DNA of 61,979 nucleotides, the filler included, from Candidatus Woesearchaeota archaeon (GTDB taxonomy: Archaea; Nanobdellota; Nanobdellia; Woesearchaeales; B72-G16), in assembly GCA_003650545.1 (NCBI GenBank). It is 10 parts of 10 records of this genome, joined end to end, with 100 filler letters (N's around TTAATTAATTAA, not from the genome) between each part and the next. Parts side by side here need not be neighbours in the genome. Positions count along the whole stretch, not along the records: positions 7,932 to 15,383 come from QMQO01000050.1; 9 more parts are not named here. One strand, 5' to 3'. Position 1 is the stretch's first letter; every line of letters begins with the position of its first letter. Below, piece after piece: positions 7,932 through 51,014 of the stretch. The notes beneath the pieces were generated by a model, which saw only the letters and a program-made list of their open reading frames with translations, did not search any database and was not told where the DNA came from. Made by a program: the position numbers and the translations under genes.

Positions 7932-8047
7932 TGAGTGCGCCCATTCCGCTGCGCACTCATTCATCAACCAAAAATACTAGAAAAAACTAACGGAGGACCT
8001 CAATTCCTCCCAAACGTAAACGTTTGGGTATCCTTGAGGTAGATGTA
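7932..8047 (+). mobile_element. Terminal fragment of an IS200/IS605-like or MITE/PATE-like element (copy 1)
   Basis: Hairpin TGAGTGCGC/GCGCACTCA, AACTAACGGAGG, then CAATTCCT-CCCAAACG-taaa-CGTTTGGG-TATCCTTG; homologous inverted copy at 50898-51014; lies at a contig end. Confidence 0.6.
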
Positions 8048-8149
8048 ATGAAACGAAGCAGTAGACGTTGGAAGAAAAAAGGACAGATGCGCTGGAAATG
8101 GCAGCGCAAAAGAATGAGAAAAGAAAAAAGAAAACGTAAACAGAAATAG
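8048..8149 (+). CDS. rpl41e: Ribosomal protein L41e (33 aa), not in the ORF track
   Basis: MKRSSRRWKKKGQMRWKWQRKRMRKEKRKRKQK* matches the archaeal L41e pattern MRWKW.KKR; GAGGT SD at 8036-8040. Confidence 0.88.
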   Translation: MKRSSRRWKKKGQMRWKWQRKRMRKEKRKRKQK

Positions 8150-50549: not shown

Positions 50550-50897
50550 TTGTTCACCTTCTTTCTTTATCTTTTTTATCTTTTAGTGTTATATTTTATT
50601 TTATTTATATGTTTTTCTTATTCTGAATGAGCGGTGAGAATCTTCAAGTTATAGCAACTGCGACAATGCTGTATTCTTAGCTATTAGAAACTGCTCTTAC
50701 GCTTGACTTTGTCAACCAAGAAAAAAAAGTGTCGGTCTTGTGCTAATGCTCTGCTAATACTATATTGCTAAATATTTTAAAACTTACTTACAATTTATAG
50801 CTAATTATACTTATTTATAATTTATAGCTTAATATTAGTAAACTATTAGTAAACTAAAAACTTATATCACTGGAAGTGCATTGCATTTTAAATTCAT

Positions 50898-51014
50898 TAC
50901 ATTTAAAGGATACCTTGGGCTTTAGCCCAACGGAACATCCTTTCCTCCGTTAGTTCTATATATTTGTAAATTAAATGAAAGAGTGCGCAGCGAAAATTTC
51001 GGCGCACTCAACTT
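50898..51014 (-). mobile_element. Terminal fragment of the same IS200/IS605-like or MITE-like element (copy 2)
   Basis: Minus strand reads TGAGTGCGC..GCGCACTC-tTTCAT...AACTAACGGAGG...TTCC-TTGGGC-taaa-GCCCAA-GGTATCCTT...ATGTA|ATGAA; lies at a contig end. Confidence 0.6.

Follow-up and report, generated by a model that had tools for sequence, protein, structure and literature searches.

The window analysed here is a stretch of 61,979 bases from the assembly of a Candidatus Woesearchaeota archaeon (GCA_003650545.1), in which ten contigs (C49, C50, C52, C53 and C55-C60) of a bin of 133 contigs and 1.64 Mb are joined by 100-base spacers (N50-TTAATTAATTAA-N50). Two of these contigs end in related copies of a structured repeat, namely the first 121 bases of C50 (copy 1) and the last 122 bases of C58 (copy 2), and copy 1 directly abuts a short basic open reading frame (ORF) that is referred to below as the rpl41e-like gene (Table 1). 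A preliminary description, made from the sequence alone, had noted an ordered architecture common to both contig ends, and every element that it listed was found at its coordinates. Both repeats are almost certainly left ends (LEs) of IS200-type insertion sequences (IS200/IS605 family), and they probably belong to autonomous elements that integrate 3' of the motif NTCAT, at start codons, with the genes downstream still being expressed.

Table 1. Features of the two repeat copies and the adjoining host DNA (SD, Shine-Dalgarno; positions count along the window)
Feature	Position	Strand	Remark
Copy 1, truncated LE, variant v1	7932..8047	-	93% identical to the copy on C27
Palindrome GAGTGCGC-N-GCGCACTC between LE hairpin and tnpA	7932..7959		in nearly all relatives; folds
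Palindrome arms TGAGTGCGC...GCGCACTCA, copy 1	7932-7940 with 7951-7959		
Palindrome arms, copy 2	50981-50988 with 51002-51009		
TTCAT beside the first hairpin of copy 1	7960-7964		
AACTAACGGAGG	7985..7996		nearly invariant alignment columns; complement in copy 2 at 50944-50955
Two-tier subterminal LE hairpin	7997..8040		covariation; folds
Outer stem, copy 1	7997-8003 with 8034-8040		ACCTCAA with TTGAGGT
Inner stem, copy 1	8009-8016 with 8021-8028		CCCAAACG, loop TAAA, CGTTTGGG
GAGGT, SD-like, 3' arm of outer stem	8036..8040	+	-12..-8 of the host ATG; v1 clade only
Tip of copy 1	8043-8047, then 8048-8052		ATGTA, then ATGAA
ATGAA, flanking host DNA, first bases of the host gene	8048..8052	+	reverse complement of the target TTCAT
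33-codon basic ORF (rpl41e-like) with stop, abutted by the LE	8048..8149	+	conserved in relatives
TTCAT target of copy 2	50893..50897	+	complement ATGAA opens an 11-codon frame only; not a gene start
Copy 2, truncated LE, variant v2	50898..51014	+	top strand on the plus strand of the window; cut at 51014
Inner stem, copy 2	50915-50920 with 50925-50930		TTGGGC, TTTA, GCCCAA

In copy 1 the top strand of the element, which is the strand of the transposase gene tnpA, is the minus strand of the window, and the body is cut off at the contig end at 7932. The 1.64-Mb genome contains seven copies of the block AACTAACGGAGG (on C7, C16, C19, C27, C40, C50 and C58), of which six lie at contig ends, and every copy is followed by AT(G/A)TA and then, beyond the tip, by ATGAA. 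Variant v1 is present on C7, C19, C40 and C50, with the 93%-identical copy on C27, and variant v2 on C16 and C58; a contig end of C1 carries the v2 palindrome with a different tip. Contig-end overlaps of ~123 bases are also common to several unrelated repeats in the bin, hence the visible repeat length of ~121 nt reflects the word overlap of the assembler and is an artefact, and the element extends past the contig end. The repeat bodies are absent from the bin, being shorter than its contig cut-off of ~2.5 kb.

The other side of the elements is found at further contig ends. Right-end group A (C3, C8, C10 and C33) matches the right ends (REs) of the relatives L062 and L064, including the TnpA C-terminus ...AQKSLxGFCA, and in L018, a contig of 1,091 bases from the same metagenome, a v1 LE and group A occupy the two opposite ends. 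Right-end group B (C5, C11 and C28) has the v2 LE hairpin and a TnpA C-terminus, and ends in ...GGAGGTTCATTTT. The end of C10 encodes the C-terminus of KorA and that of C40 the start of KorB (Pfam TPP_enzyme_C and PFO_beta_C); since a KorA C-terminus directly precedes korB in four (L099-L102) of seven fetched relatives, two of which (L099 and L101) have an ATGA stop/start overlap of korA and korB, one v1 copy lies exactly between the korA stop and the korB ATG. A 546-base unitig over the LE has a depth of 178, compared with 34 for unique flank, which corresponds to about five copies (Logan contigs, one run). Both v1 and v2 have recently multiplied in the host archaeon.

On C27 the repeat runs into the 5' part of a gene that points away from it and matches the Pfam family Y1_Tnp (PF01797; E 7.9e-12), and a second tnpA start lies beside the element end on C1. 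Complete elements were obtained by a DNA search of relatives, a pattern scan of metagenome contigs and a search for TnpA in 401 Woesearchaeales genomes, of which 103 contain matches. They include v2-like elements of ~650 bp (L027, L028, L055, L056 and L061), v1-like elements of ~725 bp (L062 and L064) and a complete but more distant relative (L004). Whole relatives measure 650-730 bp, have tnpA (142-165 aa) as their only gene and share one order of parts: TTCAT, the LE with its two-tier hairpin, CCTCC(G)TTAG with a T run, an AT-rich spacer, the GAGTGCGC palindrome, an SD sequence in a small hairpin, tnpA, the RE hairpin and the end. All three TnpA proteins scanned match PF01797 (L027, L028 and L004, with E 4.7e-34, 1.1e-33 and 1.6e-21, respectively), and those of L027 and L064 align over their full length with solved IS200, IS608 and ISDra2 transposases (E down to 7e-21).

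The features of the IS200/IS605 family are thus present, namely a Y1 HUH TnpA adjoining the left end, subterminal hairpins at both ends of complete copies without terminal inverted repeats, and insertion 3' of a specific pentanucleotide in a single orientation. The tnpA-only content and the size of ~0.6-0.75 kb that characterise the IS200 group were found in L027, L028, L055, L056, L061 and L064; in the same six a repeated flank is not evident, and their REs, with a boundary ambiguous by ~4 nt, end in TCATTT or TTACTTT. The window's own copies are likely to be tnpA-only as well, as in the complete relatives. Hence the preliminary assignment of the repeat to an IS200/IS605-family end with subterminal hairpins is borne out by the TnpA matches and the covarying hairpins (see below), whereas the further suggestion of a non-autonomous or IscB/TnpB-linked family had to be abandoned, as the complete relatives are autonomous and tnpA-only and tnpA starts adjoin the ends on C27 and C1. 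Neither tnpB nor iscB was found in the complete copies, IscB having had no separate search. The sole PF07282 match of the genome lies on C111 (3,169 bases), the GC content of which is 46% compared with 36% for the genome; this contig is probably contamination of the bin, and the match was set aside as a partner of the element because of its deviating composition. The TnpB-like ORF on C111 has an internal TAG. No filled/empty pair from the same strain was found, nor any joint across an empty site in the Logan contigs of the run. In the tnpA of C27 an in-frame TGA stands where the orthologue L094 has TGG for tryptophan (FWHLEWVTKYRYKMF; C27:1-290, L001/L015); a change of the code to TGA as Trp was rejected, as the alignment with the Trp of L094 indicates a pseudogene mutation in a decaying copy.

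As single-stranded DNA, both stretches fold with z-scores of -5.0 to -5.8, and none of 200 shuffles was as stable. In an alignment of 12 different LEs, 12 of the 15 base pairs in this hairpin show two-sided changes, and 77% of the cells pair; the covariation score was 0.481, compared with 0.188 +/- 0.035 after shuffling (reached in 0 of 500 cases) and at most 0.098 with slid partners. It had been noted before that the stems of the two copies differ yet still pair, which is correct and, given the strong covariation among the 12 LEs, general. By analogy with related transposases, the two-tier hairpin is presumed to be the TnpA-binding site in single-stranded DNA. Just inside it lies the block AACTAACGGAGG, which on the tnpA strand reads CCTCCGTTAGTT followed by a T run. 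Pairing of the CCTCC of the LE with the SD of tnpA in read-in transcripts was seen in three of nine minimum-energy RNA folds, and partially in a fourth, and was not considered convincing. The palindrome, in the form GAGTGCGC-N10-13-GCGCACTC, lies between an AT-rich TATA-like stretch and the SD of tnpA in all complete relatives, and is conserved in sequence, rather than covarying, across distant family members. To judge from this arrangement, it looks more like a protein-binding operator of the tnpA promoter than a transposition hairpin, and it may be an operator or a structure of the 5' untranslated region of tnpA. The TTCAT beside this first hairpin was discarded as a conserved part, as relatives read ATAAA or ATGAA there. 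Rfam gave no match at the gathering score for the window and both stretches (best E 4), and a tRNA scan found nothing.

All seven copies of this genome have TTCAT as the pentamer 5' of their LE. A covariance model of the LE, built without the flank, was run against 150 other Woesearchaeales genomes and gave matches in 26 of them, with 35 copies in nine genomes being of the TACAT-tip type. The pentamers preceding these 35 copies are TTCAT (28), ATCAT (4), CTCAT (2) and GTTAT (1), so that the position 3' of TTCAT and next to ATGAA, as first described for the window, holds for the whole host genome and extends as NTCAT to 34 of 35 copies elsewhere. TCAT is the constant part of the target and ends in CAT, which reads as a start codon on the opposite strand, NTCAT being the reverse complement of ATGAN. 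At C70:1857-1924 a lone LE-like hairpin (model E 1.3e-5) stands after CTCAT; no tnpA was seen in the next ~260 bases, and the hairpin could represent a solo end or else a derivative that is not autonomous.

Among 54 informative insertion sites, drawn from this genome, other metagenomes and 13 other Woesearchaeales genomes, 39 lie at a gene start, and 35 open an ORF of at least 100 aa when that criterion alone is applied. The 39 comprise four of seven sites in this genome (three ORFs of at least 100 aa and the conserved 33-codon gene), six of eight on other metagenome contigs, 25 of 35 from the model survey (22 ORFs of at least 100 aa or open through the 460-base flank, and three small genes with Pfam domains) and all four from further complete copies of the TnpA survey. 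L028 (13-base flank), the duplicate L029 and the unpublished G132 were dropped before the count, and L017, a 70-aa frame without a Pfam match, was counted as a non-start. Of the 16 copies in genome G150, 15 adjoin genes. The abutting ORFs have Pfam domains that start at residues 1-9 and at profile positions 1-4, which identifies the abutting ATG as the real N-terminus; the genes concerned encode rpl19e, Cbf5 (DKCLD/TruB_N), ribonucleotide reductase, KaiC, FMN reductase and DapF, as well as radical SAM, HMA, GT2 and LGT proteins, and a peptidase S66 domain starts at residue 16. Most of the copies that have been retained therefore lie at true start codons, some of which belong to essential genes, and the preliminary claim that the LE lands just before start codons proved right for 39 of the 54 sites.

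The background is far lower. In this genome, first-ATG starts of ORFs of at least 100 aa make up 5.0% of 6,073 ATGAA sites and 5.1% of 16,471 TCAT sites; outside genes, as delimited by a crude gene map, starts account for 17.4% of ATGAA and 22.3% of ATGAAA sites. The probability of 39 or more starts among 54 sites is 8e-15 at p = 0.223, 3e-8 at p = 0.35 and 5e-5 at p = 0.45. The 5' flanks of the non-start sites are T-rich (0.58 compared with a background of 0.35; resampling P 5e-5), but T-richness lifts the share of starts from 5% to 9-12% only, and an extended T-rich target was rejected as the sole cause of docking. As the motif, T-richness and the loss of intragenic copies are each too weak, the excess of start codons is taken to be real, and we are confident that docking at start codons goes beyond chance and simple selection.

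The gene abutted by copy 1 is itself well conserved. The ORF at 8048-8146 shows ~80% DNA identity in many relatives and begins at the same start codon in all 15 fetched loci (ATG in 12, GTG in two and TTG in one), with the same MKRSSRRWKKKGQ..., so that ATGAA at 8048 is indeed, as had been supposed, the true start of a conserved 33-codon rpl41e-like gene. No Pfam match was obtained for this ORF, even at E 10; the name L41e reflects an apparent resemblance to that protein, which only the last 20 residues (MRWKWQRKRM...) share. The ORF is conserved across the order, together with a 13-residue N-terminal extension that may be a feature of the lineage. All 15 relatives carry the gene without the element (best match of the model 13 bits, E 0.38), hence the expected empty sites exist and the repeat is no fixed leader of the rpl41e-like gene. 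In at least six relatives a TATA-like box is visible by eye at about -33..-24, without an SD, as in leaderless genes, and the insertion has displaced any native promoter of the rpl41e-like gene by ~0.7 kb. Four relatives (L042, L043, L044 and L047) have (A/T)A(C/T)GGAGGT and a small hairpin ~35-55 nt before the start; this leader loosely recalls the inner LE, with a model score of only 13 bits (E 0.38), in L047, and may be either a remnant of an old LE or a leader of independent origin.

What the LE could contribute to the expression of a docked gene differs between clades. SD-like pentamers in this genome peak with starts at -14..-9 (217 of 1,026 long ORFs), and the GAGGT of v1 sits on this peak; L062 and L064 have GAGGTG at the same place. 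On C3 the group A flank ends in ...AAAGGAGGTTTTT, a native GGAGG without an ATG after it, which indicates that a native SD has been separated from its gene by the element, and in L064 a TATA-like box lies in the DNA beyond the right end. No SD-like motif is present at the tip of copy 2, of 16 G150 copies, of 11 G041 copies or of the L027 group, and decayed copies without GAGGT precede intact genes of 385 and 472 aa (L005, with a truncated tnpA, and L007, without tnpA). The preliminary proposal that the element carries its own SD is hence tenable for the v1 clade (copy 1, L062 and L064), but does not extend to copy 2 and the other clades; of the TAATG stop-start overlap proposed with it, the letters are present, but they belong to an ATG-TAA dicodon behind a stop, and no ORF of the element ends there. 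From its sequence and position, it is plausible that the v1 LE supplies a ribosome-binding site (RBS). A leaderless TATA box ~26 nt inside the LE tip was rejected, that position being a GC-flanked hairpin loop. The docked genes, several of them essential, must presumably be transcribed and translated with the LE immediately upstream; that the LE actively supplies the expression signals is possible, but less likely than not.

The mechanism that we favour combines these elements. TnpA would bind the covarying subterminal hairpins in single-stranded DNA, as analogy with IS608 and ISDra2 suggests, and the element would integrate 3' of NTCAT, mostly TTCAT, on one strand and without duplication of the target. 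With ATGAN as the commonest gene opening in an AT-rich genome, the LE tip would come to lie exactly 5' of a start codon, tnpA would point away from the host gene, and the coding sequence would remain untouched. Downstream genes would then be expressed either from a promoter inside the element, for which the spacer between tnpA and the LE is a candidate place, or by read-through across the element. In the v1 clade, the GAGGT at the LE tip, at optimal distance, would replace the displaced native RBS, and in the other clades translation would start without an SD. A bolder extension, conceivable and put forward with reserve, is that a DPANN lineage of IS200-type elements has specialised on start codons by means of an extra cue, such as the melted promoter DNA of leaderless genes or an unstructured T-rich single strand at gene 5' ends, and that its LE acts as a portable 5' leader. 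Such a leader would comprise a promoter, plus an SD in one clade, and essential host genes would stay expressed under element-borne signals; if true, this would be a strategy of harmlessness comparable to that of self-splicing IStrons, at the level of the translation start.

Several points weigh against docking with element-borne expression as set out here. For this genome, the v1 and v2 bodies are reconstructed from relatives and contig ends, and the boundary of the right end is ambiguous by ~4 nt. Recognisable gene starts are lacking at 15 of the 54 sites, one to three of which may interrupt genes (L027, G041:C55 and perhaps G144:C31); the background was taken from a crude gene map, limited to ORFs of 80 aa or more that begin with ATG and with 77% coverage, in which starts are probably under-represented, and the pattern scan of metagenome contigs required ATGAA, so that its sites serve the ORF test only. 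As for expression, no outward promoter was identified in the LE, and the only sequencing run listed, which may be that of the source sample, is of DNA; GAGGT is an arm of the outer stem in one clade only, may exist for the hairpin rather than for translation, and in RNA would pair with ACCTC (the computed fold being that of DNA).

Among the alternatives, docking as a by-product of the same element is the most serious, and appears rather unlikely. Any accessible T-rich NTCAT would be hit, intragenic insertions would be lost in compact genomes, the LE would play no part in host gene expression, and the downstream genes would be read through from their own promoters. It fits this proposal that zero to three of the 54 sites are intragenic compared with ~75% expected, a deficit which shows that selection removes intragenic copies, that the T-rich flanks at non-start sites reveal a preference mildly favouring Lys-rich N-termini, and that in most clades the tip lacks an SD-like motif. 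However, T-richness raises the share of starts merely from 5% to 9-12%, and even among non-genic sites starts reach ~17-22%, in contrast to 72% of the copies and to 15 of 16 in one recent burst. Moreover, an insertion between promoter or SD and ATG should harm more than one elsewhere in the spacer, unless the LE compensates, and such insertions are indicated by the native GGAGG without an ATG on C3 and the TATA-like box beyond the right end of L064.

The nature of the element leaves less room for debate. A non-autonomous hairpin element, of the kind known as palindrome-associated (PATE) or miniature inverted-repeat transposable elements (MITE), or the end of a TnpB- or IscB-carrying IS605-type element could be considered since the v1 and v2 bodies are unassembled in this genome, the relative L007 is a tnpA-less derivative, and TTCAT serves the IscB element ISGst5 as target or target-adjacent motif (TAM) (10.1101/2023.03.14.532601). 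This is very improbable, as tnpA directly adjoins the LE on C27 and C1, a TnpA C-terminus is encoded at the right end of v2, tnpA is the only gene in the complete v1-like and v2-like relatives of 650-730 bp, the high-depth unitig of 546 nt is too short to accommodate a tnpB of ~1.2 kb, provided that the element is as large as L064, and the sole PF07282 match lies on C111 with its deviating GC content. Finally, a reading of the repeat as a structured 5' leader conserved at rpl41e, or as a regulatory RNA of that gene, is suggested by the place of copy 1 directly before the rpl41e-like gene and by the AAYGGAGGT-plus-hairpin leader ~45 nt upstream in four relatives; it is refuted, and its residual probability negligible, as the same sequence precedes unrelated genes (for a lipoprotein, korB, a methyltransferase and others), is absent from the locus in 15 of 15 relatives (best E 0.38) and has no Rfam match.

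Two further observations concern other sequences at gene starts. An unrelated IS110-like element (transposase start MQYVGLDVHKK) ends in ...CGCGAGGTTTCATAG directly before an ATG at C7:41224-41573 and C16:29886-30258, its other end being on C9 and C24 and a remnant at C11:12282-12383; as the ATG opens plausible genes on C7 and C16 (a lipoprotein signal peptide; MKKTIVLSLGGS...), this would be a second element that abuts start codons, with GAGGT 7 nt before the ATG. On C19 (117-165; L016), the LE is followed by ATGAAAAGAATA-TAGA-ATGAAAACAGA-ATGAAAAGAATAATACC..., and the opening of the real signal-peptide gene, 27 nt further on, is repeated in the first 12 bases after the LE.

The IS200-type element as such is ordinary and its TTCAT target is already known; the interesting part is the docking behaviour and what it implies for the left end. 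The target word is a start codon read backwards, and the element stands base-exact before intact ribosomal protein, pseudouridine synthase and ribonucleotide reductase genes, in genomes that are tiny and streamlined. If the LE supplies transcription or translation signals, it would be a natural 'promoter/RBS swap' cassette, with which a selfish element rewires host expression without breaking genes, and a compact start-codon-seeking integration module. In addition, the breaks that these elements cause in DPANN assemblies fall exactly at gene starts, and 5'-end annotation is biased as a consequence.

Target motifs of IS200/IS605 elements are usually treated as arbitrary short words. According to the accessible parts of the respective sources, the family inserts 3' of a specific tetra- or pentanucleotide in constant orientation (PMC7290912), is the most widespread insertion sequence family in archaea and includes the ancestors of Cas9- and Cas12-type nucleases (PMC13343696). 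No description of a base-exact preference for start codons was found in the literature as far as its text was accessible (including PMC2775950, PMC7290912 and PMC8024623), ISfinder and paywalled work aside.

Comparison with individual systems places the present elements within the family and sets their docking apart. IS200 of Salmonella and other Enterobacteriaceae measures ~700 bp, encodes only tnpA (Y1 HUH) and has subterminal hairpins without inverted terminal repeats. The present elements share its tnpA-only size class, the subterminal hairpins and a structured region between LE and tnpA start, and differ in their archaeal host, the defined NTCAT target, several recent copies and an LE that abuts start codons. 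IS608 (Helicobacter pylori) and ISDra2 (Deinococcus radiodurans) have homologous solved transposases (E 1.8e-19 to 5e-8), and the present elements resemble them in layout, with an LE hairpin 17-20 nt and an RE hairpin ~10 nt inside the cleavage site and insertion 3' of a short motif; their targets are TTAC and TTGAT, respectively, both also carry tnpB, and to our knowledge neither favours start codons. The closest solved homologues are the Sulfolobus IS200-like transposases (PDB 2F4F and 2EC2; E 7e-21 to 3e-20 over the full length), which are likewise archaeal and have an aligned HUH motif, the comparison being one of proteins. Lastly, ISGst5 of Geobacillus stearothermophilus, an IscB-carrying IS200/IS605 element, has TTCAT 5' of its left end as target or TAM, and the accessible part of its account contains no statement on start codons that we could find (10.1101/2023.03.14.532601). 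It thus shares the flanking motif at the same side of the left end with the present elements, but encodes iscB and an omega RNA, whereas these carry tnpA only.

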